A stretch of DNA of 55,309 bases from Rhizaria sp. SCN 62-66 (taxonomy: Eukaryota), in assembly GCA_001724265.1 (NCBI GenBank), contig MEDY01000186.1, positions 1 through 55,309 of the forward strand, given 5' to 3'. The notes under the pieces are model-generated. The model was not told the origin of the DNA and did not search any database. It saw nothing but the letters and a program-made list of their open reading frames with translations. Positions 5,592 to 36,316 of this stretch are shown piece by piece. A program made the translations under genes and the position numbers. Within the stretch, counting starts at the first letter, position 1. Each line of letters opens with the position of its first letter.

Positions 5592-8500
5592 ATGTTCCGT
5601 GCTTTATTACAAGGCTCTACCAGGGCTGCTGTGTCCCGTCCTATTCTCTCCCGCCGTGCGCCGCCCTCGACCGCGTCTTCACTCGCGTCCGTCCCCGCTG
5701 AGCACCTCCTCACGCGCGCCCAACCTCGTCTCTTCGGCCCTGCGCCTCCCACGGACTTTTCCGCGTCTTGCCCCGCTTTTGCGCATGTATCTCGCCCCAT
5801 CACGGCCTCGGTGTCCTCCCGTGACACCGTCCGCCGTTTCTTCTCGAAAAAGCCCACTGTGACAACTTCTCTCGGTCACAGCGCTCCCACTGCTGCAGTG
5901 AGCGCCGGCGCCCCCAACGGCTCCGCGGCTGCCTCGACTGACGCCACCTCTGCCGCTGCATTTCTGGCGAGTTTCTCACTCGACGAAGAAGAAGAGGCCC
6001 TGCTGGCGAGCTCGGCGCTGCCGTCGGCCGAGGAGCGCGCCGCCACGAAGCGTTTGCAGAAGCGGCTCGCGCAATACGATGAGAGTCTCGCTGCGGAGTA
6101 CGTCGAGGAGCTTGCCAGCCACGACGCCAGTCCAGCTGAGCTGCTCAAGCGTGCGCAGCGGCAAGCAGCAGCGACGTCGACCGGCGCTGCGACCGCAGTG
6201 CCAACAGTGACCGCCGCTGTGCTAAGCAAGGCTGGGGTCGGTGTTGGCATGGGCATTGGCGCTGGCAAGAGCGCGCTGGCAGATGTTGGCACCGTCACCG
6301 TGCTTGATATCCCTCCGCAGCATGCCGCGGCCCCGCAAAGCAAGACTGACGCGGCAGCGAAGACCGCGGCTGCCGACGGTAACCAACAGCATCAGCAGCA
6401 AAATGAAGCAAGTGCCAGCGCCGCGGCAGCCGGTGCGCCGCAGACTGCGGAGGGTTTGTTCGGCATGTCCTCTCTAGGAGACTACTCGGTCCACTTCCCG
6501 GATCCGCTGATCTATACAGGTACGCTTGATCACCCGTTGCAAAATCAGCAACCTCACAAAGATATGACTAAGTTGTGAGCCCCTATCACGGACAACAACA
6601 TATTGATGTTTTGCAATTCCAGTTATCAGCCCAAGCGCTCACTTTCTATGCTCTCTGTTCTCATTTGTTCTCAACTTGCTCTTGTTTTTGTGCTTCTGCG
6701 CCTGTAGGCACTGAGCGCGTGCGGTGGGTGCCCCCGTCCTCTGCCTTCAACCCTTTCGCTTTCCCGGTCCTCGACGTCTCCACACTGTGCATCGAGCCTG
6801 ATGAGATCGTCCAGCTCGCCGCTTCCAAGGAAGCTGAGGCCGCCGCAACGCCAGCCTCAGCAGTCACCGACAAGGATACCAAGAGCAAGAGCTCAGCAAC
6901 TGCGAAAGGTGCCAAGTCTGCCGCCGCCGGTGCAGCAGCTGCTGCTGCTGCAGAGCCGGCGTTGGAGTCCGCGGCGGCGCGGTCTCTTGCGGCAGCATAC
7001 GGCAACTTGTCAGAGATCACGCAGTCACTGATGACCAACGGGGGCGGGCTCGCGCCAGAGCAGCAGCATTAGCAGCAGCAGCAGCAGCAGCAGAAGCAGC
7101 AGCATATGAATAGCTACGGAACTGGTGCTGCTCACGGCCACCCCCACGCGCCCGGCATGCCCCCGGGCCCTGCGGGCGCTAGTGGGCCCTTCGTCAGCGG
7201 TCCCAACATGTCTGACAGTGCTAAAACTACTACAAGCGCGAACAAAACGAACGCTAACCCGCCGAATATGGCCAATGCTGGTGGTGCTGGTGCTGCTGCA
7301 AGGAAGGATGATGATAATGAGAGCGGGCAAGGTATGTTAGGCCACGAATCCGCTCTTCCTCAGGGAGCTGTGCAGTTTAGGCAGTCCCTCGCCAAGTTTC
7401 CGCGTCCCCTGGTTGTCCGCTTCCCGGTCCCGCGCGCTCTGCAACAGGACATCACGGCCGTCTTCATTGCGCCCATGCCACGCACTGCGCAGGAGGCCGT
7501 CGCGGCCGAGGAGCAGCGCGCACGCCGCGCACGCCTGGCCTCGGGTGCTCCACCCACGCGTACAGGTACTTCTGCTCCGGACCACACCGCGGATGCCGCC
7601 GCCGTGGTGGGCACCGAGCTCGCCGGAGTCGCGCGTTACCTCCAGGCAAGTCACGGGTTACCCCGCGCCGACGACGCGCCGGTGCGCGTGACCCCTCGCG
7701 TGTCTCTGCCTGCCTCGGCCAAGAGCAAGGCCCCGCCCGCAAGCGCCAAGGCCCGCGCACAGACCCAGGCACAGGCACGTGCGAACAAGGTCCACGGCCG
7801 CGCTGTCGCCAACGCCAACAAAGCCGGAGCCGGTGGCTCAGGTGCCGCCGGTACGGCTGAGGAGGCTGTGCGCCGCGAGGCCGCCAAGGCGCCGCCGGTG
7901 CGCGTGGCACAACGTGCCTCACACTCTGGCGGCCGGTTTGACGTGTATATGGCGGACGAGCACGGGACCACGCTGTTCTTCTCGTCCCGCGCCGGTGTCG
8001 CCGCCAAGGGCGAGCTGCGCGTGACCGCCGCGGCGATTGAGCGGCATCACATCCTCGGTCTGTCGCGTCCGCCGCGTCTGCTGCCGCTGCCGCCGCCGCT
8101 GGCGCAGGCCGAGGCGGCCGCCACGCGCGCGCGCGGTGGCAAACCCGGTGCGGACGCGGAGGAGATCTGCGGCGTGCTTGAGTTCGAGGTCGCGCGTGTC
8201 ACCACGACGTACCAGGCGGGTGATCCCTACGGTGAACCGTCGAGCAGCATCACGTTCCGTGCCCGCGAGGTCGATTTCTTACTCCGGTCGGTCATTTTCG
8301 GCGTGCATTTGCCCGCGCCTGTGCCGCCGGTGTATGCGCATGCCGTCGAGCGCAGTCTCACCGCCGTGGCCAAGAGCGACAACAGCGGTAGCAAGGCGGA
8401 TAAGACTGCGACTGAGAGCGAGGATGACCGGCGCCGCGCGCTGGCGGGACGGTTGTGTATGGCGCTGTACGGCCAGGGCGCCAACGTCGCGTCCACACGG

Positions 8501-8827
8501 TCGCCGCTGCGGCACCCCGTGGTCGCGGCCGAGGAGCTGGGCTCGGTTGAGCTGGCCGTGCTCTACGGCGACCCGCGCGAGTTGTTCCCTAAGGAAACCA
8601 CGCGCATCGCGACTGAAGAACAGTTGGAAATGGTGATGGCTTCGCTTAAGGGCGACGCGGCCAAGGATGTGGTGACGGACTCGGCCATGAACGCGCCGCC
8701 CGGGATGCCCACCGAGACCGAGGGCGCTGCTGCGAGCAACACGAGCGCGGATGCGTCGGCTGAAGACGCTGAGGAGGCGGAGGCGGCGGATGCTGCAGCG
8801 ACGCCGACTCAAAGTGCGACTCAGTGA
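5592..8827 (+). CDS. Hypothetical protein with mitochondrial-presequence-like N-terminus; intron 6520-6707; in-frame TAG 7070-7072 (~1015 aa if TAG is sense)
   Basis: Arg/Ser/Ala-rich, acid-poor N-terminus (MFRALLQGSTRAAVSRPILSRR). Phase-1 intron ACAG|GTACGC...CTGTAG|GC joins ORF 5592 to the frame of ORF 6575, which is in frame with ORF 7106-8827 across one TAG in a CAG run. Ends TGA. Confidence 0.7.
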
Positions 8828-9475
8828 ACGACGTGCAGCGGACAAGGAATATGTGGATTTATGTATTTATTAGGACTAATTTAAGTAAAGCCCATTTGTT
8901 ATGTTTCAATAGACAATATTTATAATTCAAATGTGTTTTATTTTCATAAAGAAATGATTTTTTGAATGTGTTTGATGGCTTGGGTCAATGCTTTTTTCGG
9001 AACTGCGGTCCAGGTGAACAGGTTGTTCACCAAATTGATCGATCGAGAAAACGGTTTGCGAACTCGCGAGCTGCTAGCGTCAGATGTCCGACGGTTATTG
9101 GCTTGTAGGCACTGTATGCATTTTCAATGACACGGTGCTTTGAAATACTAGTATTTCACCCCATCTTGCGCGTATGCCGCATTCACACGCGCCATCTTGG
9201 TTTGACCTACTGCCCAACAGTCAATTTAGAGGGAGCCATCTCCCCTAGACCCAAAGCTTAAGACCCATTCACCAGTTCGCACCAGCCGCCCTGGAGTGCG
9301 TTCTCACCACTTATTTCTACCAAACTTATGCACCATCTCACTGTTTCCCGCTTTTCTCGTCCCGTTTTTCTTCTGCCCCTTCTCCTTGCCTTATCCTCCT
9401 CTTGGTCCCCCGCCCACTTCCCCCCCGTTTCCCGTCACTGCCCGGCCTCCTCCGCGCCTCCCAGACACCTTCCCC

Positions 9476-9682
9476 ATGGACCCTGGCAAGGACGAGGTTC
9501 ACGACAAGGCCGACGACGGCAAGGCGCACCTCAAGTCGCTTCCCGTGCGTGCCTACCTCGATCAGACGGTGGTGCCCATCTTGCTCCAGGGCATGGCTGA
9601 GCTTGTTAAGGCCCGTCCCGAGAACCCCGTGCAGTGGCTCGCGACGTACCTGCTCAACAACAACCCTGCCAGCAAGAAGTAA
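9476..9682 (+). CDS. DPY30: DPY-30 motif protein (COMPASS subunit DPY30/Sdc1-like), 68 aa
   Basis: [40 protein letters not shown] is the canonical Dpy-30 motif. ATG at 9476, TAA stop. Confidence 0.93.
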
Positions 9683-10837
9683 GCCGGCACACGGGCTGTT
9701 GTGCAGTCTCTCTCGCGCGCTCGCTTGCTTGCTACACATGCTACCAGCGCCACAGCAACTAACGGTTGTCGAGTGTTGAGTTGAGAGTCAAGGGAGTGTG
9801 CATCTGTGTGTGGATCTGTGGTGTTATTTAGTTATAGTGTGTGGCAGTGGAGCTGTCATAGCAAATTGTATTGTGGACAGTTGCTGTGACTTCTGCGTGG
9901 TACAATGTATGTATGCCACCTCTACTCGCCTGAGTGTCCTTGTTTAATTTCTCTACCTATGTTTTGTTTCCCTTCATTACTTACAACATGCCTCTTCTAT
10001 TTAGTATCGTTTCATCAGCAACGACATGGACATTTGGCGCACACACACTATAACTACACTTAGCACCACATTACACACATATCCTCCCGATTCAAACACC
10101 CTCTTCATAACTTCGGTTTGCACTCGACGCTTTTGTGGCGACAGCGGGGTTCGCTAGCACACGTAGACAGCGTGCGCGCGTGCGCGCGGCTGCACTTCAA
10201 CCTATACCGCAAAAAAAAAAGACAAGAAACACACATAATCACAAACAAAAACCCTTTCTAAACTCGAGACCATTGATTGGTAATGAATGAAACCAGTTTT
10301 CCCTTCCCCCTCCCAACAACATAAGTATGGCAGCACCATTGAGGCGCATAGCAACAGATACACTCGCATTTACGCGACACATGGTCCGTCTTACAGCGAC
10401 AGTAGAGATATGCTGCTGACTGACCATGACGCATTTTCCCCCACACCGAACGTTTTGTACCGTTCTAGCTCTCTCACGTACAGAGCAAATGCAGCGTCAA
10501 CCACCGTGTACTTCGGTGTGCGACTGCTTCTATATGTAACTCCGCAACAACATACTGCATGGTTTATCTGCATCGTAACTGGCTGAGATCAGACCAGGGC
10601 TGTGGCGCGTAAAAATCTGTGCAATGTTGCGATTCTGTGCTCTGCTGCGATACCATGTTCGCTATCAACAATAAACAAACACAATTTTCTTCAATCGTCG
10701 GAGTCATAAATTAACTGGACTTGCTTTGTATCTCATTGCTGTATTTCTAAATCATTCTCGCAATTGGTGTTGCTAGGTTATCATTGTGGGCGGTGAAGCA
10801 TCTTGTTGCATCAACAACATCTTGGTCAAGACAAAAC

Positions 10838-12457
10838 TTAACGACGATCACTGCGGTCACGGACGTAGTCACGGCGGTCACGCTCACGGTCACGCCCCGA
10901 ATCGCGGTCACGGTCACGGTCACTGCGCTCACGGCCATTATCACGGTCACGGTCACGGACGCTGCGGTCACGGTCACGGTCACGGTCACGATCATGATTC
11001 CTGTTATGATCACGTCCGTAGTCACGGTCGCGGTCACTGCGCTCGTTACGGCGACTGCTGCTGCTGTTGTTGCGATAATCACGGTCGCGGTCTCGCTCAC
11101 GGCCGTAATCACGGCTTCTGCGCTCACGGTCATACTCACGGTCGCGGTCTCGCTCACTGCTGCGGTACTCACGGTCACCGGCACGCTCACGGTCGCTCAT
11201 ACGCTCAAAGTCACCGCGGCTGTCGCGCCCACGCTCATCCCTGTGTCTGTCCCTGCGACTGTCATGATGACTGTCACGATCATCGTCGCGGTGACCGTGA
11301 CCGTGACCGCCGCTGCCACTGTCGCTGTGGTTGTTGTTGTTGTGGTGGTGCCTGTTGTTGTTGCTGCTGTTCTTGCCACGGGCAGCGGCACGCTCCGCGG
11401 CCTCTGCCGCCGCACGGGCCCTACGCTTGGCAGCAAGCTGCTCCATCACCTGTGCGCGACACAACAGCAAAAACAGTAAGAAAACAGTCAGCACGTGCAA
11501 GTGATCAGGTGAGCAAACAAAGACGAATAGACTCACAAACAAAAAAGTTATCTTCTTAAATGACGCAAAATTAAAACAAAATAAAAGTATGACAAGTGAC
11601 GTTACGTTGACAATGTGACGTACGAAAGACATGCCACCGGCGGCCGCGACGGCAGCTATTTCCCGCTCCCCCATCTCGGCACCTTTCGGCATGTCACTGT
11701 TGGTACCCAGGGTGGAACCCATGCCAGAACCCATGTCAGTACTCGTGCCTTCGTCCTCACTGCGACGTTGTCCTTTGCGGCCAGCGTTGTTGTTGCGGCG
11801 GCCGGAGCTGGATGATGAGACGTCGACCATAGCGTCATCGTCCGAGGGCGGCGCCGAGGTGACCCCGACGATCGTGTCGAGCTCGGCCGCGCTGGCTCCC
11901 GCAGCGCCCGCGCGCCGCCGCAGCAGCACACGCCGCGCCTCGGCCTCGACGCTCGCCCCCACACTGTTGATATCCAGAGTTGAACTCGCACTAGCATTAG
12001 TATGGTCATGGGAGGGAGTTGGTTCGACCCAGGGCCAGACGCGGCGGCGACGCGCTTCGTACGCCTCCTCGTCGTCAGAGTCGTATTGCTCGCGCTTGCC
12101 AGAGACGAGCTTGGGCGGACGGTACCGCGCGGCGTGGTCGACCCGCAGCGTCCGGTTGACTAGCGTCGCACCGTTGAGGTTGTCCACGGCAAGCACCGTC
12201 GATCGCTGGTCTTCGTAGGCAGCGAAGGCGAAACCGAGCGACTGCGACGTCTCCTTGTCGCGGCAGAGGTTAAGGTCGGTGATTTCGCCGAACTGGGAGA
12301 GGACCACAAGGAGGTCGCCCTCGGTGAGACCGCGGTCGAGGTTGCCGATGAAGATGTACGCGGAGTGTGAGTAGTCAGCGTGCCAGGACGCGGAGGAAGG
12401 AACGCCTTGCTCCAACTCCTGCTGGTTCATCTGCTGGATCTCGCGCACAACGTTCAT
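10838..12457 (-). CDS. RBMX2: RES complex RRM protein RBMX2/Snu17/Ist3 with RD/RE-rich tail; intron 11450-11623
   Basis: MNVVREIQQMNQQELE..SWHADYSHSAYIFIGNL..LTEGDLLVVLSQFGEI..GFAFAAYEDQRSTVLAVDNLNG..RTLRVDH. T-rich 174-nt intron GTACGT...GCACAG. Ends TAA. Confidence 0.93.
   Translation of the reverse strand: MNVVREIQQMNQQELEQGVPSSASWHADYSHSAYIFIGNLDRGLTEGDLLVVLSQFGEITDLNLCRDKETSQSLGFAFAAYEDQRSTVLAVDNLNGATLVNRTLRVDHAARYRPPKLVSGKREQYDSDDEEAYEARRRRVWPWVEPTPSHDHTNASASSTLDINSVGASVEAEARRVLLRRRAGAAGASAAELDTIVGVTSAPPSDDDAMVDVSSSSSGRRNNNAGRKGQRRSEDEGTSTDMGSGMGSTLGTNSDMPKGAEMGEREIAAVAAAGGMSFVRHIVNVTSLVILLFCFNFASFKKITFLFVSLFVFVCSPDHLHVLTVFLLFLLLCRAQVMEQLAAKRRARAAAEAAERAAARGKNSSNNNRHHHNNNNHSDSGSGGHGHGHRDDDRDSHHDSRRDRHRDERGRDSRGDFERMSDRERAGDREYRSSERDRDREYDRERRSRDYGRERDRDRDYRNNSSSSRRNERSDRDRDYGRDHNRNHDRDRDRDRDRSVRDRDRDNGRERSDRDRDRDSGRDRERDRRDYVRDRSDRR
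10845..11300 (-). repeat. Degenerate hexamer repeats (CGTGAC)n encoding Arg-Asp/Arg-Glu dipeptides in the RBMX2 tail
   Basis: Repeated gtcacg on the + strand, translating as RDRDRD/RERSD on the - strand. Confidence 0.85.
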
Positions 12458-13221
12458 GGCGCGCGTAATCAAACCGCGAAGCTGCGGGGAATGAGCGAGG
12501 CTGGCGAGAAGGACGGGTGTGGAGTCGACTGGGTGGTGGGGACAGCGGCAGCGATGCTCAGACGGCAACGGCTACAGGCAAAGCGGGGCTCAGAGCGGCG
12601 TGCTGGCGCTGGATAACGCCGTGACGGGGAGCCGCTGCGGTGAGGTGCACCCTAACAGATTGTCAGTCTCGGGACAGCGATGCGTTTCGAGCGGGGCACG
12701 CTGTGTCTCGCTGTGGTCAGACGGGTCTCGACGCTTTTAAACTTGAGGGTAAGGGACGGTCAAGTGGGCGGAGGAGACAAGGATATATGAGCGGTATTAC
12801 ATCGTCGAAGTGTTACATTAAAAGACTAATAGAATTAACTATGAAAAAAATACTTGGTTTTACAACAAAGTCGTTATTGACAGTCACTTCAGAGCACTAT
12901 TACAAAATTTGCTCCGACCCAGCGCCAAATGCAACTAGCAAAGCGCGCCTCGCCAAACTCAACTTTTTCGTCCTAATTTTAAGAATATCTCTTCCGACAT
13001 TGCAGTTATAGCGTTAATACTGAGATATTTCTCTATAGAAGCACATTTACTAAAGAGAAAATCTTCTTATATTCAATTATTACTCGTAACTCAGTGTATA
13101 ATTGCGCATTTCTAATGTCCCACCTCCTCTACTTCCTCTTTCCGCCACTCCCTGTCCCGCGCTCCCCTGCGCTCAGGAGGACTCTCTCCGACCACCACAG
13201 TCCCTGTCTTGCTGCGCACGC

Positions 13222-22200: not shown

Positions 22201-23856
22201 ATCTCACTCACGGCCTCACCTTCGTCCAAGCCCACCGCCACCGGCACTCAGCGTGTGGGTGCGCGTGCCAATGCATTGGCCGCCAGCCAGGGTCTGGAGC
22301 TGCGGCATACTCTTGTGCCACCACGCACTGATTTCTCGCAGATGGACCGCGAAGAGGCGTTGTACGAGCAAGAACAATTGCGACAGCAGCAAAAGCAGCA
22401 TGCACAACAGCAGCAGATGCGCGCGCAAGACGACGGCGTTGATCTCGAGATGAGCGACGACGACAACAACGGTCTTGACGAAGAGGACGAGGACGAGCAG
22501 GATGACGACGATTACGATGAGAATGAGACTGAGGAGGAAGTGCAGCTGCGTACGCTGCGGCGCCGTCTTACGGCCACGCTTTTCCGCGGATACACTGCTG
22601 CGCGGCAGACTGCAGTCGAGGACGCGATTGTGCTTGTGCGCAGCGCTAACAACATTGTGCGCCGCCAGTTGACACTTGCTGTTATTACTGAGCTGCGCCA
22701 CTCACTGCCGATGGATCCGCTCTCAGTCTCTCTGCGCGCGCGTATGAATCGCGTACACATGCGCAACACTGGCCACCTCGTGCTGTTTTCTATCATCTCG
22801 GCGCTCGCGGCCGCCGGTGTGCGCGTGCGCCGCCGCTGGGATCCCGCAGTGCTGGCCGAGGTCGGGCTTGGCTCTTCCCCGGTGCACCCTGCCGTGGCTG
22901 CTGCGCGCGACGAAGCCGACAAACTCCGCGCTGAGATCGCTGCGTTGCGCAACAGTGCTGGGATCGGTGCCGATGCCGGTGCTGGTGGCGCCGCGGCCGT
23001 TGAGGCGTGCGCGTGTTATGACACGAGTCTCAACCTTGCGCGCCTGCTCACAGTCACCCGCACCCGCGCGCGCCACCTGCGCGCCGCTGCAGCCGGCAAC
23101 GTCATCGCCACCGCCGCAGCCGCTGCGCTCGAGTCCGAAGAGCAAACCCTCCGCGCCCGTGTCGCGCGCGAGCTCGCCGAAGAAGAGTTTGTTGCGCTCG
23201 ATCCCCGTTGGTTGCTGCGGCCCGGCGACGACAAGAGCGCGCGCGAGCCCGCAGCGAAGACTGCGATGGAGGACTGGCTCTCCATTCCCGAGTCGCTTGC
23301 GGCAGATGTTGACGACGCTGCGTACGCGCTGCCCGCAGCCGCACCCTCTGGTGGCTCTGGCGCTACTGGCGCTGGAACGGCGAGGGGGCAGCAGACGTGG
23401 GCTGCGGGTGCTGTGAATGCCAACACTGGCTACGGAGACCCGTATGGCGGCGCATCGCTCGCGGTGTTTCCCCCCGCACAGTTTCCGTATGCGCAGCAGA
23501 CGCAATCCCAGGCCATCACGCAACAACCGACGCAATCTGCAGCTGCGTTCGGAGGCGAGCACATCTCGATGGCGCAGCTGACAGACACGCAGGCGTTTGC
23601 GCGCATGCACTCGACGAGTGACAGCGCCGCTGCAGTGGGCCATGAGAACGGTGGTCCCGTGGTGAAGCGCAGCAGGCTGTCTGGAGCCAATGACGGTGGA
23701 CCTCTCGCCGCTGCAGCATCCGCCGCTGCGACAACAGGCACAGGCCAAACTTCTGATGTACAAAACGACGAACACGCGAACATCAATGCGTACTCTATCG
23801 AACATGAACACGGTGCCAGTCTTGAATCGCAGTACGAAGGAGACGAAGCATGGTGA
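13222..23856 (+). CDS. RecQ-family DNA helicase (BLM/Sgs1-like), ~3544 aa, uninterrupted ORF
   Basis: FRPLQ (motif 0), [85 protein letters not shown] and RQC zinc motif CRR...C...CDNC within ~17090-18880. First in-frame ATG at 13222. Ends TGA. Confidence 0.95.
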
Positions 23857-24045: not shown

Positions 24046-26794
24046 TCACTCGTCAGCATCGGCGACCTGCTCACTCAGGGCGGCGATGAAGTCAAGAAGC
24101 TCACTACGCTCAGCATCGCTCTCAACAAACACGGTCACCGCGCCACCGTCGTCTCCCATGCCACTGCCATAGGCGCTGCCGTCAAGCGGTGCAATAGTGA
24201 GCCCAAACCGGCCATCAACGAGAGCACCGGCAGGCAAAGCGCGCGCAGCGGCGGGTAACGCAACAGTTGTGGTCTCGCCACCTTCAAGTGTCCACGCGTC
24301 AACAACGCCAGTCGCGCCCGACCCCACAGTGCTTTCGCGCACTGCAGTGGTGACACGCACCACAATCTCGCCCGTGCCGACCATTTTGATGATGTCGGCA
24401 ACCACAGGCACCCACCCAGCGCTGTTGCCGCCGCCGCCAGCACTGCCGTGCGCGCCGTAGCCACCGGGCCCGACCACGCGCGCGTGACCGGCAACACGGC
24501 GGAGACGCACCTCGCGCTCCTCAAGGCGCTGGCGCATGGCGACGAGCCTGCGCGCGAGCCCCGCGTTGGCGGTCTTGGCGTCCTCGACTTCCTCCACCAG
24601 CTCTGCCACACGGGCACGCAGCGCCGAGACAGCAACGCGCGCGCGCGACCGCAGCAGCGCCGTCGCACGCAGCGGCGGCAGCGGTGCACCGCCCCACGCC
24701 GCGCGCGCCTGCGGGGGCATGGCGGCGGGTGTGGGCAGCTCAGAGGGGTCCCAGTCGCGAGGGTACTCGCCGTCAGTCAGAGTCAACGCGGCCTCATCGG
24801 CAGCTTCCTCCTCACCACTGCCGGCGCCTAACGCGCCTAGCGAGGCAGCGGGGCTGTTGCCGAGCGCGGCGGCCACAGCAAAGTCCTCAGCGCGCGCGGC
24901 GTGCTCGCGCAGCGCAGCCATCTCGCGCGCAGTCTCATTGCGCTCGTGCAGCAGCGCGCGCACAGCAGCACGCGCGGCCGCGGTTTCGGCGCGAGAAGCA
25001 GCGAGCTCGCTCTCGAGTGTGTCCGCGCGAGCGGTGGCCGTCGCAGCCGCGGTTCGCGCCGCGGTAGCAGCGGCAGCCGCGGCCGCAGCGGCACGCGCGC
25101 GCTCGAGCGCCTGCTCATGAAGACTGGCGAGCGCCGCGGCCGAGGCGTGCGTGAGGGTGAGGTGTGCAGCAGCAACGGCGCCGAACTCGAGACAGAGAGA
25201 CCGCAGCTTGGCGCGCATCACAGCCAACTGCGACGCCGTCCAAGACGAAGACGACGACGATAACGACGATGACGAAGCAGAGGAGGATGACGAGTTTGAG
25301 CCGCCATCGCGGTCACGGTCGCGGTGCTGCATCGCAGGCGCCACTCCCGCCATGGACGGCGGCAGCAAGCGCAGGAGATCAGCTACAAACAAGTCAACAG
25401 CATCCTCGTCGACCGCTCCCGCGGCGACGTATACCGACGCGGCGTGCTGATGGTGCCAGGGGAAGCCTGCCGAGGCTGCCGCGGCGTACGCAGGCGCGGG
25501 CCACGCTGGCACTCCGCCCTCCGCCTCACCGTCGCCCGCGCTGCCGCCTGTGCTCGAAGCGACCGCGGCACTAGCGTGTGGTTGCTTCGTGAAGAGTGTG
25601 GCGCACGTCGAGAACACGCTTGGCGTGGCCAGCGGCTGCGCAGTGTGGACACCAGCAGCGCCAGCAGCGCCACCAGCGGCGGCGGCGGCAGCACTCGCGT
25701 TCGGCGCCACAGCGGTGCGCGGAGGACGCCACAGCTGGCCACGCACAGCGCCAACGACCTCCGTCGCAGCGGCCTCTCCGTCGTCGGCGTCGCCGCCATC
25801 GCCGCCGCTACCGTCGCCGACTACCAGTCCCGCAGCCGCGGCGGCGGCGGCACCCACGCGCGGGCCGAGCAGCGATGGCTCCACGCGCCGCTGCGACGCT
25901 GCCACGGCCAGCGTGGCGACCGAGCGCAGCAACGGCCGCAGCTGCTGGGAGAGCGCGGCCCACTGCCGCCGCTGCTGCGCCGCGCCCGCTTCGGCCGCGG
26001 CCGCGCGCTGCTGCAGAGCTGCGCGCGCCGCGGCCTCGGCCAGGAGCGCGCGCCGCAGCACGCCCGCGCGCGCCGCCAGCGCGCTCACTGTCGCCGCGTG
26101 CGTGCCGTGCGACGCCGCCACCGCGGGCGGCGCGAACCCGTGACCCTGAGTGCCGTGCGCGTGCGCGTGTGCGTGTGTGGGGGGGAGCGCGGCGGGCGGT
26201 AGAGGGACGAGGGAAAACGAGGATGGAGAGTGCGACGAAGGGAAGTAGTTCGCAGTGAGCGCAGGAGACGCAGTGCCACTGCGGGCAGTGTCGCTGTTGC
26301 CGGCCGCGTGCTGCTGGTGCTGCTGCTGGTGCTGGTGCTGCTGTGGGTGCTGTGGCTGCGAAGGCATGCGCGAGTGCAACTGCATCGAGGATGTAAGCAC
26401 GCCCAAAGACTTGCCTTGCATCTGCGTTTCCGCGCCTTGATTCACCCGCTGCTGCTGTTGCTGTTGCTGCAGAGCTTGATCGTGCGACGAATGCTGTGAT
26501 AAGCGCTGTGGGGTCAGCGGCGTCTGCGCTTGTGGTTGTTGCTGCTGCTGTTGTTGTTGTTGCTGCTGTTGCTGCTGTTGCTGCTGTTGGAGTTGAGACT
26601 GCAGCAGCGACTGTGAGCGCAGCAAGCTCGCTCCCTGCATCGACATATGCTGTTGTTGCTGTTGCTGTTGTTGAGCCTGCTGCGCCAGCTGCACCTGCTG
26701 CTGCAGCTGCTGCATCTGCCGCATCTGTTGCGGAGAGAGAACAGACTGCGAGTGAGCCAGCGAACCCTGCTGCCACCCCACGCTGCCCACCTGA

Positions 26795-26826
<32 letters not shown>

Positions 26827-27711
26827 TGTATTTCCTCCCCCCGGATGTTGCGCAGATCCAGTGGCTGCTGGAGTGGGTGTGACAGGATGCATCGCATGCA
26901 GACGGGAGAGCGCGCCGCCAGTCGACGACAGCGCCTGCGTCGCTGCGGCCACAACACTCGCCGTGCCCATGCTGCCCACGCCACCGAGCCCACCACCAAG
27001 CCCGCCGCCGAGGCCGCCGCTGCCGAGGCCGCCGCTGCCGAGGCCGCCGCTGCCGAGGCCGCCGCTGCCGAGGCCGCCGCTGCCGAGGCCGCCACCGCCG
27101 ACCATAGCAGTGCTGCCTGGCGTATTACCAGCGGCGGCGCCAGTGCGCGCGCGACGATTAGACGGCGTGCCCAGACCCGCGCCGTAGCCCAACGCGATCG
27201 GCTGCGTGGCCGGTGAGCCTGCTGCGGAGGCGGGGACTGAGCCCGACGCGGACGATGATGAAGAGGAAGTTGACGTCGTCACGGGGGCCCCGGCGCCGTT
27301 GTTTGCGGCAGCTGTGGATAAAGGTGAAGACGGAAACGGCGCACCGACGCCAATAGCGGCCGCAGAAAGGTGTTGGTGGGGCGCGGGTGAAGATGGTGCG
27401 CCGCGCGCGTGCCAGACGGAGCCAGCACCGCCGTTGGCACTGCTAGATGCAGTCAGCGAGGAGGGGGAAGGGTGAAACGGCGCGGGGGCCGGCGGGGGAA
27501 CGAGCCCGGCCGCAGAGGGCAGGTGGGAGTGGTTCAGCGGAAGTGCTCCAGCACCAAAAGAGGACGAGTGCAGAATACCTCCGCCGCCACCGAACATGGA
27601 GGAAGAGATAGAGGGGGGGAATGCGGAGTGGTTGGTTGGCATCGAGCCCAACGGGGGACGCGCTGTACTGCGGCCAGTCTGCTGCTGGGGCAGCTTCTAA
27701 GGTGTTGACAT
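24046..27711 (-). CDS. Low-complexity (polyQ, Gly, Ala) coiled-coil protein, possible divergent C-terminal PH-like domain; in-frame TAG at codon 5 if the start is ATG 27711
   Basis: The 1201-aa ORF extends in frame to ATG TCA ACA CCT TAG AAG CTG CCC CAG CAG CAG. Alternative start is ATG 27642. The C-terminus TVFVESDAERSELLDFIAAL resembles a PH terminal helix. Ends TGA. Confidence 0.7.
27007..27093 (-). repeat. 15-bp tandem repeat (GCCGAGGCCGCCGCT on +), 5 perfect copies plus a partial, encoding GGLGS repeats
   Basis: Read directly from the sequence. Confidence 0.95.
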
Positions 27712-28032
27712 GCCCTAAAAAGCGCGGTCTTATCGCATATCAGGTGTCTTACTGACTGAAAACGTAGCAGAGGTCTGTTTAAGAGCGTTTGCTGTGCCGA
27801 CCGTTCCTCAATTGCAACGGTTCGACCAGGTCACGAGGCGGAGTCTAAAAGAAGGATTTTGCAAGATAACAGGAAAGAATACCATTGTAATTAAGTGTCG
27901 TTGTCTTAAATTGTGTTTTATAATTCCTACACGGCAAGACACCGCAAACAACGGATTTTATAAGAAAAATCTTGTTCACTGAAAAGACTTGACTCTCCAA
28001 GTCTGCCCGTGGTGATATTTTGAGAACCCCAC

Positions 28033-28077
28033 CCCCCCAAAGGGACGGGGCTCTCAACCCCCCGAAGGGACGGGGCT
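28033..28077. repeat. Short direct repeat CCCCCC(A/G)AAGGGACGGGGCT x2 in an intergenic region
   Basis: Two near-identical ~20-bp copies about 25 bp apart. Confidence 0.75.
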
Positions 28078-28445
28078 GTCGAAGAATGCGCAACTACAAT
28101 GTATGGGGAGATTAGATGTAGACGTAGAATTTAAGGAGATATATGATGTTTATATGTAAGGATACCAAGGAATATGCTCAATAATGCTGTATATCGAAGA
28201 CTGTATTGAGGGGAAATAAAAATCAAGTTTGTACTTTCCAAGACGTGGAGATCGAAGTGGGCTAACTTTGCAACTGAATACGGACGCTTGGGATTGTCCA
28301 GAGTTCATTATTTGTATATGCCATGAGACTAATAGAGATAAAACGTTATCTTACCATTTATCACAACGAGAACTCTTCATAATCTCTCATACGCCATCAC
28401 GTGTTCCTTCCTTCGCGCCTACATCTCAGACCCGCTTCTGCTTGG

Positions 28446-28889
28446 ATGTCTGTTCTAAAGCGCTACACGCAGCTCCCAACCCACCTCGTGCACATCGGCC
28501 GGCTTCCGGTCTCTCTGCGCGTGTTCAACCCGGCAAAGCGGTCCTGGGACCTGAAGCTGCACGACGGTAAGGTGCTTCCGATGAAGGCCGACAAGTACGT
28601 CGAGCCCAACGGCATGTCGATGCGGCCGCCCAAAAGCGAGAAGATGCGCCACACCGTGAGCACGTGGTAGGGCAACGAAGCGCGCGTGTACTTCCTCTAC
28701 GAGGGCTTCCCCATGCCCGAGGGGCTGGTGCTGGTGCACGAGCACACGGACCACTACTCGGTGCAGACGTCGGAGCCGTGCACGCTGCCCGAGCTCAACG
28801 CCAAGATCACTGCGCTCCTCCAGAGGGCCTCGTCGCAGACGCCCGAGGAGTTTCTCCGCCCGCTCACCGAATCAGATCAGGACAACTAA
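28446..28889 (+). CDS. Tse2-like ADP-ribosyltransferase toxin-family protein (147 aa) with in-frame TAG 28668-28670
   Basis: ORFs 28401-28670 and 28686-28889 share a frame. Joined, they show PNGMSMRP...EGxPxPEGLVLVHEHTDHYSVQ..PCTLPELN, as recalled for eukaryotic Tse2-type ADP-ribosyltransferases. Ends TAA. It would be a pseudogene under the standard code. Confidence 0.75.
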
Positions 28890-29665
28890 GCCAGCGGCGC
28901 GCGAGCGAACGAGCTAAAAAGCCAGCGTCCCAGCGACAAGAGACGATGGACGTAATAAAGATACCCTTTTGAGCTAAACTGGAACAAGTGTATTGGTGTG
29001 GTCTTCTCGTAATCTGCTGCAGCCAGACTATTTTATCGGTCCAGTTGCTGCCTTGCCAGACACTTCTTCAACAGTTTTATATCTGCTCCTAGTTTGTGTA
29101 ATATCCCGGTCAACTAAGGTGTCGGATGCTGTCACGCTGCGTAACAGACGGTGACAGCGTCTTGCGCTATGACAACCGGTGTGAGTCTCAATAGCAATGA
29201 AGTACATTTTCTAGGGATTGTCAGATCATCTAACCATAACCTTTCAATAAATGTCCAAATTGACGTACTTGAGATCTCCTGCGTCTTCCTACTGATATGA
29301 TTTACTTCGCAGCTGCACACAGTCACGTTGCTGCGAGCTTGGATTCCAAAGCTTTGTGCGTGATATTCTTCTTCATATCTTGTAGTTTGCTGTTAATATT
29401 TTGAATGCATCTGAGTAGGCGTATGGTTGTTTCGAAATATCTTTCTTCTGTTATTGGTAATATGGGAGTCTGCTCACTCGTCGAGAGAGTGATGACGTGG
29501 CGGGGTGACTCCCTTTTCTGCGAGAGTTTTCTGGGTTGTGTGATCGTAATATTTTGTTTGTGTTTTTGTGTGCTTTTTCTTATTATTTGGTGAAGTGCTT
29601 TTCATTATAAATCCTGATTTATGGTCACCACAGACGAACATTGTGTCTTCAAATTTGTTCTTACC

Positions 29666-30560
29666 TTACTCCAGGCCAAATGCCTTGCAGTGCTGTTCCA
29701 ACTTAGAGCCTCCAAGCGCTTTGGTGTTAATGTCTGCGGTCATCTCAGCCGTGCCAATGTCCTTGACATCGATGCCGTAGTGGTGGACTTGGTTGCGCAC
29801 AGCGCATTTCTTACAGATGTCGATGTGCTTGGTCCACCCGTGGTGCTCGGGGTTCAGGATCGTGTCGATGGCGCTCTTGTTGTCGAGGCAGAGTGTGATC
29901 GGCGCCGTCCTGCCCGTGATCTTGGCGTGAATCGGTTGCGCCCAGAGTGCGTCCTTGGTTGTCTCAGCTGCCGCGACAAACTCAGCTTCAGTGCTGGACT
30001 CTGAGACGAGAGTCTGCTTGCGCGTGAACCAGCTGAATGGGCTGCCACAGTATAGCACCACGGCGCCTGAGGTCGACCGCTTGTCAACGACGTCGCCCGC
30101 CTAATCCGAGTCTGAGAGTGCCGTAATGGTCTCGTTCCCGTTTGAGCGGCCGGCCAGATGAAGCTTGTAATGCTTGGTGCCCTTGAGGTAGCGCAGAACG
30201 CGCTTCTGTGACAGTCGAATGGTCTTGATCGTGCCAGTTTATGAGGTGCTGGAGATATCTGACTACGAACGCAATGTCACTGCGACCGCAGCGGACCAAA
30301 TAGCCAAGCTGAGCAGTGAGACGCGTGTAGTTGTCTTTGCTGTTGTCGTTGTAGCTGATGTCGTACTCGTAGTCGCGGTGGGCGTCGGGGCTGGTCGCCG
30401 TTGCATCGCCGCCAGGTGAGCTGCGCTGCTGCGCCGCGACCGCCGCGATGACGGGCAGCTTCCTCTTCGGCTGCATTGGCGTTGGCGCGGTGTTGGCGTT
30501 GCGCATGCCCCACTCAGCCAGCAGGTCATCGACGACATGCCTTGATCGCGTCCACCTCAC
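29666..30560 (-). mobile_element. Degenerate Ty1/copia LTR retrotransposon pol fragment (RT C-terminus plus RNase H)
   Basis: GMRNANTAPTPM, RSDIAFVV, KRVLRYLKGT, SDSD*AGD..DKRSTSG, SWFTRKQTLVSESSTEAEFVAA, DNKSAI, TKHIDI, ADINTKAL. Frameshift near 30205 and TAG at the conserved Trp (30101-30103). No gag, integrase or LTR recognised. Confidence 0.93.
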
Positions 30561-30841
30561 GACGTTGCCATTTGAGGCGAGACCGACTGGTGTTGCGATA
30601 CGGCCAGTGCCACTGGAACTGCCGCTGTAGCTGTGGGCATTGCCAAGTCGTGAGATCAGAACTTAGCTAGTCAATTTAGATATCGCCAAACAATGCGCAT
30701 TCGTACTTATAACTCGGTGTTGCAAGGTATCGATTAAAATCAATGTCTATAGTGTCTATTGAATAGAAAATAAACTCTAAATAACCATTCAAGCTTCAAT
30801 AATCAAATAATATCTCGTGCTGCAGGCACCATCACATTATC

Positions 30842-33800
30842 TTACTCCAGCATCATCGGGTCGTCCACGATGGGCAGTCCCATAAGCGAGAGCAAATACC
30901 CCTGCCGCACCACATGGCGCCTACACTGGCCCTGCGGCGCTACCATAGCGTCTTCTTCGCGCAGATCCACCATCGTCGCCGTCTTCGCGCCACCGCTGGA
31001 CACGCTGTTGCTGCTGTTGTTATTGTTGTAGCTGCTGTTGCAAGCGCGGAGACGTGCGAGTAGTTCTTCCTCCACAGCGGGCCGCGTGAGCCACCAGTGC
31101 CACATCGCGCTCAGCGACGGCGCGCGCACCAGCCGCGGCTCACGGTCCCACTCGCTGCCGCAGTCGCGCTCGAAAGCATTGCCGCCATGAGCGGGGGCGA
31201 GGTGGATGCTGTTGTGGCTGCCCGCGGCGCTGCCGTGGCCGAGTGACCGCACGTGACTATGCGCGTGACTGTAGGTCGACGCGTGTTCGGAGCCTTCTTC
31301 AATGCAGCTCAGGCGGCGGTCCACGCTCGCGTTCAAGTCCACCGCGACAGAGACATTCGTACTCGAGCTGCTCTTTGCCTCATCCTCGTAATCCGTCGCG
31401 CTCTTGGCCTCAGCAGTGGCGCTCTTAGCCTCAGCATCAGCATTCATGCCAACAGCGTCAGTAGAGCCGTATGACTTGTCCATCGCCGCACTGGGCGCAA
31501 TTGCAGTGTTCGACACGTTCGTAGCCACAGCGGCAGCCGCGGCGGCAGCGGCAGCAGAGGCAGCAGCAGACGCGGCGGCAGCGGCCCTGTGCGCTGCGAG
31601 CGCGGCCGCCGTAAGCCCCCGCAGCGCGGCGCGCTCGAGCCCCCAGTGCATTCCGGCGACCGCGAGCAAGTACGCGGCGGCCAGGAGCGGAGAAGTCTCG
31701 CCGGACAGCGCGGTCGCGGCCCACGCGGCCGACAGCGCGCCCTCGCCCGCGGCGGAGTCGCCGCCAGAGAGCGCAGTGGGGAGGCCGACGGTGCGGAGAG
31801 ACAGTGACAGCGCGAGGGCGTTGTGCAGCGCGTGCAGCAACACGGCGGCGAACCAGCCGGCGCCGAAGAGCCCCACGCGCAGCAGCGAGAAGCTCCGCGC
31901 AGCGACAGGCTCCGCCGCCGCGCTCATCCCGTACCCACTGTAGGCGCTTCCGCGGGGGCTGTGGGTGCGGTGGGCGGCGGCGTGGGAGAGCAGGTTCACG
32001 GGGGCGCGCTTGGCGGGAGGCGCGAAGCGCTGCAGCGCGGCGGGCAGCACCACCGTCGCGGGCGGCATCGGACCGGCCACGCGAGCAATATTCGCGTTGG
32101 CGACAGTATTCGTGTTGCTTTGGATGCGCGCAGCGGAAGTGGTGTCGACGACCGAGATAACGCCACCAGCAGCGGGAGAAACCGCGCCACGCGCCACGGC
32201 AACGGTTGCGACAGCGGCGGCGGCGGCCAGCGCGGCGTCCGCAGCGGCCGCGGCAAGCGCAGTCTCCGGTGGACAAACAGCCACGGAGCCGTCCGCAGCG
32301 ACGACGACGCACGCACTGCGCGCCGTTGCGGCCGCGAGCTCTTCCTCCTGCTCCGCACTCAGCCGGCCCAGCTGCGCAGAGGCGGCGGAGCTCGCGGTCA
32401 CAGCCGCAGTAGGCGAGAGCGCGGGCCTGCGCGCGCCGGCGACCGCGAAGAGCGCGTACACGATGAGCGTGCGCAGCCCGAGGAGCGTAAGCGCAAACAC
32501 CGCCAGCAGCGCGAGTGCCAGGGCGGCGACGGCGGTGCCGGCCAGCGCCGCCGCGGCCGTGGCAGTCGCGGGGGACACGGCCGCCGCGCCGCCGCTGGGC
32601 AGGATGGCGGCGAGCAGACTCGCGTACGTCGCGCGAAGCAGCGGCGCGGCGGCGACTGGGCCGGGGGCGTAGCCCAGCGCGAGCGGGTGCGACGCGTGCG
32701 CGGCCGGGACAAGCCAGGGCGAGAGCAGCAGGGGCGGCAGATGCCACAGCAGCCACGCTGTGGTGACGGCGCGCGACACCCAGAGCACGGGCGACACGGC
32801 AGCGGTCTTGGCGGCCGCGCGCGGACCGCGGGTGTAGGAGTGGAACGCACGCAGAGCAAGCGGGGTGAGGAGGGCGGACCAGGCAAGCTCTTCCCAGGCG
32901 GCGAGAAGCAGCCACGACACGGGCGCAACGGGCGCAGCGGTCACGAGCTCGTCGTCGCCCACGGCCACACTCGCGGTCTCGGCACCGTCGTTCTTGACGT
33001 GACTAGCTGTCGTGGACACGGAGACGGCGGTGGGGAGTCCCCATGTATCGTCCCACAGCAGACCCGCAGTCGCGGCAACGCCAGCCTCGCCGGCAGCGGC
33101 CAGCGCGCCCTTGGGCACCGCGCGCGCCGCCGCCGCGACCGCACCACGGACACGGGCGCTCACTGAGCCATGGTGGTCGCTATCCATCGTGCCGTCGCTG
33201 CCGTCTGCCGCTGGAGCAGGACTGAGAGCGCGGTCAAGCCCCAAGTGGCGCGCGGACCGCTCGTACACGGCCTGCGCACCCGCCACACTAACGAACCCGC
33301 TGCTCTTGGCATTCACCGTGCCACCGGTCAGGCTCGAGTCAACACCGGCGTCAGAGCCGGCGGGGTCGAGAAAGACCGTGGGCGCGGCGGGGAAAACGGC
33401 GCACGCGGGGGCAAGCGCGCACTGGAGCGGGATGACCGTGAGCGCGAGCAGCAGCGCCAGCAGCGCGGCCGAGGCGAGCGCCACGGTCAACGGGCCCGCG
33501 CGGCGCGGGAGCAGACAGCGCAGCCAGCGCGCGCCGCGGGAGGACACTGCTGGCGCGGGCGCGTGAGACAGTAGCGGGTGCGGAAAGGTGACAACGCACG
33601 CGCCTTGAGCGCCAACGTCAGCAACCTTCGCGTTTGCCTCAGCCTTAGCCTCGGCCTCGGCCTCGTCATCGCCGTTGTCGTCGCTGTCGCTGCCACAGTC
33701 CGGGTCGGCATTGTCGTGCACGCGGCGCACGCCACGGGACAAACGCTGCGGCCCGCAGCAGAGGCAGGGCGCGACCTCCGCGAGCGTCAGCAGGCCCAGC

Positions 33801-34834
33801 CGCGCAAACGCCGCCCAGCACCGACGCCCGCGGCCTCTCCCGGCAGCCGAGCCCGCCGCGACAGCGGCCTGACCGCGGCCGCGGCCGCCGCCGCCGCCAC
33901 GGCGACCGGCAGTGAGTGGAGGATGACGCCACATTAGGCCGGTGTCGCGCTCAGCGGCCGACGCTGTGTGCTTGCTATAGCTATAGCTACTGCTGCTGCT
34001 GCTGCGGGAAGGTGAGAGCGAGACTGATGGCGCGGCGAGCGCGCGTGCCAGCGCAGTACGTGACGGCAGCAGCGAGCCGCCCGCGAGCCGCGTGGACACG
34101 GCCGTGGCGGCCGCGTTGCCCGCACAGGAAGCCCCCGCGGCCGGGGACGCGCCGGGAAGCGGCGGCAGCGCAGCGGCGGCCTGGGCCCACGTGGCGGCAC
34201 CGGCGCCCAGGGGCGGCGGCGACGGCGGCGCCGAGGGGGGCAGGAACATGAGCGCAGACGGAGGTCGCGCAACAGCACCTGCAGTGTGCGCGTGATGACT
34301 GTGACTATGACTGTGAGCGGTGGCGGGGCAGGAGGCGTCGCAGACCGCGGCACCGCTGCTGTTGCGGCGCGCGAGCTGCCGCATGCGCCCGCTCCCATCG
34401 CGGTACGAACCGCCATTGACGGCAAGGGCGTCAGAGTCCGAGTCCGAGTCGCCCTCCGCCGGCGCCAGCAGCAGCACGTCCTGCCCGTGGCTGCCGCGGT
34501 CGCCGCCGCGAGTGCGGTGTCGCGAGGACGCGGGCACGAGCTGCGGACTAGCCGCGGCCGACGTCCCTGCGCTGAAGCCAGAGCCGAGGCCGTATGCGTA
34601 GCTGCTGAATAGCGAGACGAGGGCCGAGTCGTCGAACAAGGCCGCCGCGGCCACGTCGTCGTCGTAGTGCGCGCTGCCGCTGCCCCGAGGACGGCGGTGC
34701 AAATTCGCGCCTGCGACCGCGCCCGCCGCGACTGCGCTGTTGCTGCCAGCACCACTGTTGTGGTGAAAGTGGGCCGTGTGCGGCGCGTAGTCGTCGTAGT
34801 CGTTGTAGTAATACCCAGCCGCAGCGGCGACGGA

Positions 34835-34875
<41 letters not shown>

Positions 34876-36316
34876 AGCCGTGGTAGCCGTACGTGTGCGA
34901 CTGTAACTGCGACTGGTACAGACGCCGCGCGTCCCTCGTCGCCGCCGCCGCAGAGGCGGAGGACGCCGCGGTGCCGGACTGGGGGCGCGCGACCGCGACG
35001 GAGACTGCGACGGCCGCGGCAGTCAGCGGGGACCCGCCCCAGTACTATGTGCCGAACGGGTCGTCACGGCTCCCCACGGTCACACCGCCGTCAGCGCCCC
35101 GTGGCGCGGTGGCAACGGGGCCGCCGGGCGTCGTCACAGCGGCACCCGGTGTATGTGTCAGCGCAGCTTGCTGGTGATACAGCGGGTGGTAGGGCGACGT
35201 CCGCAGCGGCGCAGAGGACGGGGTGAGTACCCCCTTAGACGGGGACGTCGTCGCCGACGGGTCCGCGGGCGCGGGCGGGGCGGGCGGAGGCGGCAGCGGC
35301 CGTGCCTCGGTTTTGCCACGTGAAGTCCCCTTTGTCGACGAAGACAGTGAAACAGAAAGACGCATCGACGGCGACTGCACCAGCTGCACTGGCGCACTGT
35401 CTTCCTCTTCGTCGTTCACATTCAACGTCGCATTGCGACTGCCGCCACTTCCACCGTCGTAATCGTCGATGTTGTCGTTGTAGTTGTTTTGCTCGCGAAG
35501 TTGCAGCGCGGCGTGCTGTGCCGCCAGAGGGTCGCCCTTCTCCTTCTGCACCGCACTCGCGTCCGCACTAACGCTCACAGTCGCGGGAACACCGGCGGCA
35601 CTGCTTGCGGTCTGTGCAATGTCGCGCTGCTGCTGAGCGCGAAGGGCGTCACGCGCGGCGCGCACTGGCGGTGACACTGACACCGCATCCGCTGCGGCGG
35701 CGACGACGTTATCCGCGGTCTTCGCGAGCGGAGGCGGCAAATTGCGGCCATGCGCCGCAGCAGCAGCAGCAGTAACAGGCGCCTTGGGCGCGGAGACTGC
35801 AACGGCAAGCGCGAGGAGCGCCGCGATGAGAGGCGTGCAGAGGTACAACACCTGGCTGTAGCGGCCAAGTACGTGCGCCCACCACGGCGCCGCCGCTGCC
35901 GGGGCCGCCGGCAACGCTTCCGGGGACTGCGCGCCGACAGGGGCGTCCGAGAGCCAGGCCAGCAGCGCGAGCGCGAGCGCGGCCTGGGTCGCGAGCGCGG
36001 CGGTGGCGAGGTATGCGACGCAAAGCGGCGAGCGTGAAAGGCAACGGCAGCGGCCGCGTAGGAGGGGCGCGTGCGAGATCACGTCTGAAGGGAAGGGCTG
36101 ATGCGCGGAGAAGAAGGTCGACGGAAGCGAGGATTCGAGTGGCGCGTCGGAGGAGACCGTTGAGGTCGAGCGAGGACGCGAGGGAGAGGAGGGCAGCAGC
36201 GAGGCCGACTCGCCGCTGCTGCTGCTGTGAGCGGGGGCCATGGTCGAGTAGTCGAAGTAGGCGGAGCGGAACGAAGGCTGCGCGGACTGCGCGCCGTAGT
36301 CCGAGCCGCCAAACAT
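30842..36316 (-). CDS. Large multi-pass membrane protein with CPBP/Abi (CAAX protease type II) motifs; in-frame TAG 35045-35047 (~1824 aa)
   Basis: ORFs 35045-36409 and 30842-34702 share a frame, and the 114 codons between them are stop-free. Motifs WEELAW, WLLWHLP and AAVLLHALHN correspond to CPBP EExxxR, FxxxH and HxxxN. First ATG at 36316. Ends TAA. Confidence 0.7.
34838..34873 (-). repeat. (GAC)12 microsatellite encoding poly-Asp
   Basis: (gtc)12 on +. Reads as D12 in the frame linking the two ORF halves. Confidence 0.9.

Follow-up and report, generated by a model that had tools for sequence, protein, structure and literature searches.

The window analysed here, a stretch of 55,309 nucleotides (nt) of contig MEDY01000186.1 from Rhizaria sp. 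SCN 62-66 (GCA_001724265.1), carries in-frame TAG codons inside three genes, at positions 7070, 28668 and 35045, while none of its 13 visible gene ends is a TAG. These data fit, without proving, a genetic code that assigns an amino acid to UAG. The explanation preferred here is that UAG is translated throughout the genome, probably as glutamine, by a transfer RNA (tRNA) with the anticodon CUA together with weakened recognition of UAG by the release factor eRF1, and that this reassignment is young or of low capacity. The chances that this explanation is correct are judged to be even. The original prediction had proposed UAG as a sense codon from four in-frame TAGs. Three of those four TAGs, all 13 gene ends and the unlikelihood of trivial explanations support the proposal in part, whereas the small sample, the fourth TAG at 27697 and a frameshift in one of the genes detract from it.

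Gene F and six open reading frames (ORFs) with Pfam domains, seven frames of the window with 10,739 codons, served to train a codon log-odds model, and sites were compared by the guanine plus cytosine (GC) content of the 150 nt on each side, the score over 40 codons and the number of codons to the next in-frame stop. At TAG 7070 (codon 167 of 752 in its frame) the GC content went from 69% to 66% and the score from +8.7 to +12.6, with 584 codons to the next stop. TAG 28668 (codon 75 of 148) showed GC contents of 63% and 66% before and after, scores of +16.9 and +17.6, and 72 codons to the next stop. For TAG 35045 (codon 465 of 1866) the values were 71% and 76%, +7.0 and +15.0, and 1400 codons. 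All 13 gene ends behaved differently, with GC falling from 53-77% to 27-55%, scores after the stop of -2 to -36 and a next stop within 3-63 codons. An independent recount of the ends agreed with the earlier one in finding only TGA (six) and TAA (seven) and no TAG, and the 12 ORF rows (15,053 codons from stop to stop) again held no in-frame TAA or TGA.

The fourth TAG (27697..27699, minus strand), which had been counted as in-frame, is present as described; by codon score it lies at the 5' edge of the ORF of gene B, and is not shown to be inside the gene. Gene B (24046..27696, minus strand; ORF) encodes a protein rich in polyglutamine (polyQ) and alanine and ends in TGA. The GC content at this TAG rose from 50% to 62% and the score from -15.3 to +14.6, with 1216 codons to the next stop. 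The coding signal of gene B thus starts only at 27697, with AT-richer DNA upstream, and this TAG is therefore no evidence for a sense UAG. An ATG is present four codons upstream of it and nothing indicates its use.

The region from 27000 to 36500 was found in eight public runs from five studies dated 2015-2025, which are bioreactor, wastewater, activated-sludge and fuel-cell metagenomes and include one library of polyadenylated (polyA) RNA. The comparison with contigs of these runs covered one 20-kb stretch, with TAGs 27697, 28668 and 35045 inside it and 7070 outside. The table of other letters reaches 30483, and TAG 35045 was judged from the listed contig pieces. Runs X1, X2 and X4 are DNA runs and X5 is the polyA-RNA run. 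The TAGs were unchanged in the contigs of as many as three DNA runs, which come from different studies: TAG 27697 was retained in X1, X2 and X4, and at 28668 the same three runs held only the letters TAG, although their contigs vary at nearby sites. The letters are therefore unchanged in run contigs at 28668, 35045 and 27697, and at 7070 they are seen only through public predicted proteins. Fragments ended by the TAGs recur in 7-10 public contigs, and no read-through allele was found among the 14 matches of the gene A homologue search or in the clusters of TAG-ended fragments. Sequencing or assembly error is very unlikely as the cause of the TAGs. That the TAGs are such errors, or lie in hidden introns, draws on prior likelihood alone, as these are metagenome assemblies, and it is hardly credible when the same letters stand in independent runs and assemblies. 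No intron covers any TAG; the introns of the window are visibly rich in AT and pyrimidines, and the one clear intron differs in this from the surroundings of the TAGs, which have 66-76% GC and positive scores.

Gene A (plus strand) encodes a conserved eukaryotic protein without a Pfam family. Its first exon (5592..6519) was placed by translation and by a codon score that is positive from about 5600 to 6540. A 188-nt intron follows (6520..6707; GTACGC, a pyrimidine tract and a final TAG), as read from the sequence and from a frame switch near 6560-6690, and the second exon (6708..8827), supported by homologues, ends in TGA. The gene begins at ATG 5592 with MFRALLQGSTRAAVSRPILSRR, and the predicted N-terminus looks like a mitochondrial presequence. 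By arithmetic, the splice joins the frame of exon 1 to that of the TAG (7070..7072), which stands 121 codons from the start of exon 2, where a polyQ run begins (..EQQH-TAG-QQQQQQQKQQHM..), and was placed in coding sequence by codon score and homologues.

Exon 2 of gene A, used as the query of a full HMMER search against 1.84 billion representatives, gave 14 matches. Three of them are the window's own halves or fragments: P0143 stops at the TAG, and P0141 and P0158 start after it. P0142 aligns to residues 4-663 as a single chain across the TAG (48% identity, 666 columns, E value 1e-169), and the remaining matches are distant homologues. An alignment of the window protein with P0142, P0144, P0146, P0151 and P0153 showed invariant columns on both sides of the TAG (W6, N14, P15, F18, L21 and D22 before it; P233 to P461 after it), and every aligned homologue, four distant ones included, has both sets of columns in one protein. 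The window protein matches six of seven conserved columns before the TAG and all 20 after it. The TAG itself falls in a variable linker, TAG-Q7-K-QQ-HM, where P0142 has Q9-HM. Since the alignment with P0142 reaches to within seven codons of the TAG on its upstream side and no GT lies between that point and the TAG, a hidden intron is excluded here. Four public predicted proteins, on seven contigs, all stop at ...EQQH. Pfam gave no match for four gene A homologues, and the ESM Atlas gave a top score of 0.87 with only sub-threshold leads resembling ZU5, UPA and FIIND. The family shares the motifs NPF.F..LD, PPLVVR.PV, GGR[FY]DVY, AIERHH and FR.REVDFL.R..FGV.LPAP.PP.

The second gene (28446..28889, plus strand; 147 codons, ending in TAA) encodes a Tse2-like ADP-ribosyltransferase-domain protein. 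Its match to PF18648 (E value 1.3e-23) covers residues 30-135, and the TAG (28668..28670), codon 75 by codon score and alignment, lies inside the domain. Conserved columns were matched at 10 of 11 positions before the TAG and at 11 of 11 after it. The column at the TAG is the single alignable one among the three sites; in 13 homologues it holds lysine (4), arginine (5), serine, histidine, aspartate and alanine (1 each), and the closest homologue, P0003 (62%), has lysine. Public N-terminal variants P0160 and P0161, both of 74 amino acids, differ by three residues and occur on two and eight contigs, respectively. The product of this eukaryotic gene is homologous to the ADP-ribosyltransferase domain of the bacterial toxin Tse2; its relatives come from fungi, which make up most of the named matches, and from one dinoflagellate transcriptome. 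Run X1 carries two alleles or paralogues of it at about equal depth, seen as a cluster of single-nucleotide polymorphisms (SNPs) at 28478-28534.

The product of gene D (30842..36316, minus strand; ORF and codon score) is long and of low complexity, has hydrophobic segments and belongs to no known family; the gene ends in TAA. In the gene's frame of 1865 codons, a coding-like signal extends from about 36390 towards lower positions, across the TAG and beyond it. The TAG (35045..35047; codon score and contigs) is codon 465, in the context ..DDPFGT-TAG-YWGGSPL.., and the tryptic peptide that spans it would read ..DDPFGT-?-YWGGSPLTAAAVAVSVAVAR. The contig of the polyA-RNA run X5 (34888-35453) and a DNA contig of X1 (34888-40723) both span the TAG with no difference and no gap. 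Transcripts had been expected to run across the TAGs, and at one site of three, 35045, a polyA-RNA contig does so unspliced and unchanged. With this ungapped RNA contig, and with the unchanged letters at both sites, the error or intron reading is regarded as refuted for 28668 and 35045. The N-terminal fragment of gene D from ATG 36316 to the TAG (P0159) is letter-identical on seven public contigs. No homologue of gene D was found among 8000 scored candidates, a search that was probably swamped by low complexity.

The RNA contig also bears on adenosine-to-inosine (A-to-I) editing, by which UAG would become UIG and be read as tryptophan in the mRNA. Such a mechanism exists and prefers an A after U (PMC4817773, PMC11156358, PMC5496914). 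In Fusarium and Neurospora, editing in the ascomycete sexual stage is described as correcting premature UAG to UGG (PMC4817773, PMC11156358), and those genes resemble the present ones in holding a genomic in-frame UAG while still encoding full-length proteins. Editing hits only stops of the UAG and UAA type, and the named Tse2-like domains are mostly fungal. Unlike in those fungi, the RNA contig over 35045 keeps its A, at one site and in a consensus that would miss partial or stage-specific editing. Tryptophan also suits none of the contexts: it occurs in none of the 13 Tse2-like homologues, and TAG 7070 stands in a polyQ run. The nearest named relatives of the window's ABC transporter, matched at about 30-50%, are from plants, Salpingoeca, Physarum and Euglena and not from fungi, and the lack of TAG terminators would stay unexplained. 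Editing is accordingly considered very improbable.

As had been noted earlier, none of the TAGs stands in a column of strong conservation: one site is in a polyQ linker, one in a loop of low complexity and one in a variable column of lysine and arginine. Glutamine, which had been favoured as the meaning of UAG, is favoured weakly, by two polyQ contexts and by the lysine- and arginine-dominated column of the Tse2-like gene.

An AT-rich repeat at about 28133-28330, between gene B and the Tse2-like gene, reached a depth of 3582 in X1 compared with about 38 in its flanks (about 100-fold), and assemblies break at it; a dispersed element and a solo long terminal repeat are possible identities for it. 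A 20-mer of the repeat was used to retrieve metagenome contigs and gave 13 loci, and it is present in 11 short JGI contigs that resemble the organism. L003 and L010 (GC 0.23 and 0.40) matched by chance and were set aside. L008 and L009 are duplicates of L004 and L007, and the remaining nine are short, repeat-rich contigs of about 24 kb in total. Multi-copy gene families adjoin the repeat (L002:2030-3067, L004:2126-2455, L006:151-2613). One is a kinase-like protein (FVYIDLRPSNVI motif) with a truncated paralogue, and another is a P-loop NTPase protein of 820 codons with a C-terminal paralogue at L004:3-647. The matches of L006 are of AAA type only and lie below Pfam's own cut-offs.

Further in-frame TAGs were seen in these contigs, in a polyQ tract of L012 and in L002, L011, L005, L006 and L007. 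L012, which is probably of the same organism, reads ..RA-TAG-Q9LQ4.., and in L002 a TAG lies between two strongly coding halves. In L007:3-578 (identical to L009:536-1138; 50% GC) one frame has five TAG, no TAA and no TGA in 193 codons, while four of the five other frames have 4-12 TAA or TGA and the fifth has three TGA. This frame could be a TAG-rich gene or chance. Pfam gave no match in L007 or L011.

Several observations weigh against a sense UAG and are set out together here, beginning with these contigs. As a control, ORFs of at least 150 codons were counted in them, and there were 39 when TAA was read through compared with 31 when TAG was, so that the two lengthen ORFs to about the same extent. 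Since this crude control shows no TAG-specific excess over TAA, the in-frame TAGs of the extra contigs are weak and were left uncounted. At L004:2100-2130 the truncated paralogue ends in ..LNKM TAG CGC AAA TAA followed by AT-rich DNA, so that its terminator could be the TAG, or the TAA two codons later. In the Tse2-like gene a 1-nt deletion at 28772 (codon 109) is present in the sole contigs of X2 and X4 that cover the gene. As read from the sequence, this frameshift would destroy the conserved C-terminal part of the protein; the gene is broken at least in X2 and X4, where the TAG could be a lesion of earlier date. The RNA evidence for gene D is a single contig of a polyA library, for which carry-over of DNA is not excluded and in which translation is not visible. 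The window holds no eRF1 gene within its 55 kb, and no tRNA gene of any kind was found in it or in the 11 related contigs. The sample is one 55-kb contig with about 15,000 codons, 13 genes and three sites. Among one-step-to-stop sense codons in these genes, which are rich in GC at the third codon position (GC3), 1452 of 2318 (63%) lead to TAG. Interruption by TAG only (three of three, p about 0.25) is therefore what plain nonsense would be expected to give, and the earlier argument that only TAG interrupts the genes describes a real pattern that is weaker than it looks. About 120 in-frame TAGs would be expected (475 CAG; TTG and CTG 83 and 328) and three were seen, which makes TAG about 40 times rarer than a neutral glutamine synonym of CAG. 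The rarity of TAG stated earlier was thus confirmed, with the count corrected from four to three in about 15,000 codons. UAG is also far sparser here, at three in 13 genes, than in the rhizarian exLh, for which 384 in-frame UAGs in 71 genes are reported, with UAA (56) and UGA (15) as the only terminators (PMC5304391).

These points bear most directly on a standard code under which the TAGs would be nonsense mutations that became fixed in genes that are dispensable or decaying, and TAG ends would be missing by chance or through a preference of the lineage for TAA and TGA. Besides the mutational share of TAG, the strong avoidance of TAG in coding frames, the frameshift allele of the Tse2-like gene and the possibly TAG-terminated L004, this explanation gains from the CAG-rich tracts, which are large targets for C-to-T change and which two of the TAGs abut. 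The statistics of the gene ends are also modest. With 514 TAG and 544 TAA trinucleotides on both strands of the window (2413 together with TGA), no TAG among 13 terminators has p of only about 0.05. Against it, TAG is as common as TAA in the window at large, and finding no TAG among the seven stops of the form TAR (TAA or TAG) has p about 0.01. Three of the 13 genes would need to be fixed pseudogenes, each with a single lesion and with 584, 72 and 1400 codons intact downstream, and a search for other lesions showed none in genes A and D and only the deletion in X2 and X4 in the Tse2-like gene. Distant eukaryotes share the conserved gene A, which, like the Tse2-like gene, keeps every conserved column after its TAG. 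Strain differences after the TAG of the Tse2-like gene are four synonymous and three non-synonymous, equal to the counts for gene B, a normal gene (four and three), although few sites are involved and power is low. An allele without the TAG is absent from the public protein sets searched, and the transcript of gene D appears to be present. Fixed nonsense is considered rather unlikely. The Tse2-like gene, taken singly, would suit either an old nonsense lesion or a sense UAG in a gene that later acquired a frameshift in one lineage.

Leaky or programmed readthrough of certain UAGs under a standard code, through near-cognate tRNA-Gln(CUG) or a similar tRNA and with reduced yield, would also give full-length proteins. 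A C after the stop and a following CAR codon are known leaky readthrough contexts, and two sites read TAG-CAG. The TAGs lie in tolerant linker regions, and their rarity would suit an inefficient process. However, the three sites (TAGcagcag, TAGggcaac and TAGtactgg) share no common context, and the TAGs stand in mid-gene before a conserved domain, unlike the C-terminal sites of known extension isoforms. Readthrough also leaves the absence of TAG among the 13 terminators unexplained, and it is regarded as distinctly unlikely.

The sense reading of UAG, to which the argument returns, would involve the following steps. UAG would no longer end genes, with UAA and UGA as terminators, and the ribosome would insert an amino acid at it, glutamine being the likeliest. 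A tRNA whose anticodon is CUA, separated by a single mutation from tRNA-Gln(CUG), would decode it, as is the usual mechanism, and eRF1 would recognise UAG poorly. The translation of the TAGs, the amino acid and the changes in tRNA and eRF1 are inferred. Because UAG is rare (three in about 15,000 codons) and occurs only at tolerant places, it is read as a young or low-capacity reassignment. A more specific version, held tentatively and with some doubt, is that of an early stage in which UAG has been purged from gene ends and is returning as glutamine by CAG-to-TAG change where the residue hardly matters, as in polyQ tracts, disordered loops and variable columns at the protein surface.

The window, from an uncultured eukaryote, has a GC content of 64% and carries long, nearly intron-free eukaryotic genes on both strands. 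Its Pfam families include an RCC1-repeat protein, an RRM and RD-rich protein, a RecQ-type helicase, a WD40 protein, a GNAT acetyltransferase and a PDR-type ABC transporter, and a Dpy-30-motif protein and the Tse2-like protein are also encoded. Genes A, B, D and F and the small ORF at 29666-30100 had no significant Pfam match. On the plus strand, the terminators are TGA at 8825..8827 (gene A), TAA at 9680..9682 (Dpy-30-motif gene, 9230-9682), TGA at 23854..23856 (RecQ-type helicase gene, 13102-23856), TAA at 28887..28889 (Tse2-like gene), TAA at 43610..43612 (WD40 gene, 36995-43612) and TGA at 44632..44634 (GNAT acetyltransferase gene, 43756-44634). The minus strand has TGA at 1005..1007 (RCC1-repeat gene, 1005-5090), TAA at 10838..10840 (RRM and RD-rich gene, 10838-12571), TGA at 24046..24048 (gene B), TAA at 29666..29668 (the small coding ORF), TAA at 30842..30844 (gene D), TGA at 45138..45140 (gene F, 45138-47999) and TAA at 49275..49277 (PDR-type ABC transporter gene, 49275-54557). 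All were placed by codon score, and those of the RCC1-repeat, RRM, RecQ-type, WD40, GNAT and ABC transporter genes also by Pfam. A TAG-ended alternative frame of the RRM gene (10747-11196) was rejected as a repeat artefact, reading TVTVTV compared with the real RD/RS-rich tail. A purine follows 12 of the 13 stop codons (TGAg/a, TAAg/a), and TAA is slightly commoner than TGA although the GC content is 64%. Runs of alanine, glutamine and aspartate inflate several of the genes, and the helicase frame of 3584 codons has its core at about residues 1338-1925 between very long low-complexity flanks.

The contig was judged not to be ciliate-like, from its 64% GC, long genes and 188-nt canonical intron. 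Self-matches aside, the ABC transporter is most similar to metagenome proteins, at 55-56% identity. The transporter is letter-identical on four public contigs, the longest of 55,346 bases, and other fragments lie on a contig of 63,438 bases; longer assemblies of the locus thus exist. A search of prokaryote genome contigs for mis-binned pieces returned only two unrelated bacterial ABC genes at 23-27% identity, scans of viral contigs matched nothing, and Rfam gave no match in the window or in the nine related loci.

UAA and UAG are nearly always reassigned jointly, and nuclear codes that split them occur in very few lineages (PMC5304391, PMC10553269, PMC11687900). Iotanema spirale reads UAG as glutamine and the rhizarian exLh reads it as leucine, and the proposed decoder is a tRNA(CUA) one mutation from tRNA-Gln(CUG) or tRNA-Leu(CAA) (PMC5304391). 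The present genes resemble both in having UAG alone in frame and UAA and UGA as terminators, and differ from both, as far as those are described, in being GC-rich and intron-poor and in having no TAG in a strongly conserved column. Phyllopharyngean ciliates read UAG as leucine or glutamine and keep UAA as a stop (PMC11687900); the likeness is the reassignment of UAG alone with glutamine among the outcomes, and the difference is that UAG is described there as widespread, with identified suppressor tRNAs, whereas its use here is minimal. Sparse sense use of a former stop codon has a precedent in Amoebophrya sp. ex Karlodinium veneficum, in which about half of the annotated transcripts are reported to be without reassigned stops (PMC6394959), although in that AT-biased genome all three stops are affected and here only UAG.

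The code proposed for this organism would formally be NCBI table 15, in which TAG is glutamine and TAA and TGA are stops. The change of TAG to glutamine is called 'Genetic code 15' in the literature (PMC9523058). Among the papers covered by the literature searches on the genetic code, none was listed that reports UAG reassignment in a wastewater eukaryote or in a GC-rich non-ciliate one.

If UAG is indeed a sense codon here, the organism would represent a new lineage whose kind of code, though known, is very rare, possibly caught early, and it would add an independent origin in a further non-ciliate, GC-rich lineage. It is common enough to appear in eight wastewater, sludge, bioreactor and fuel-cell runs. 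Gene callers that apply the standard code split these genes, and public protein sets already contain the broken halves. The rarity of UAG could reveal how a stop codon is first re-used, and the early-stage reading, if true, would show in nature the phase of 'codon capture' or of an ambiguous intermediate that is normally only theorised.

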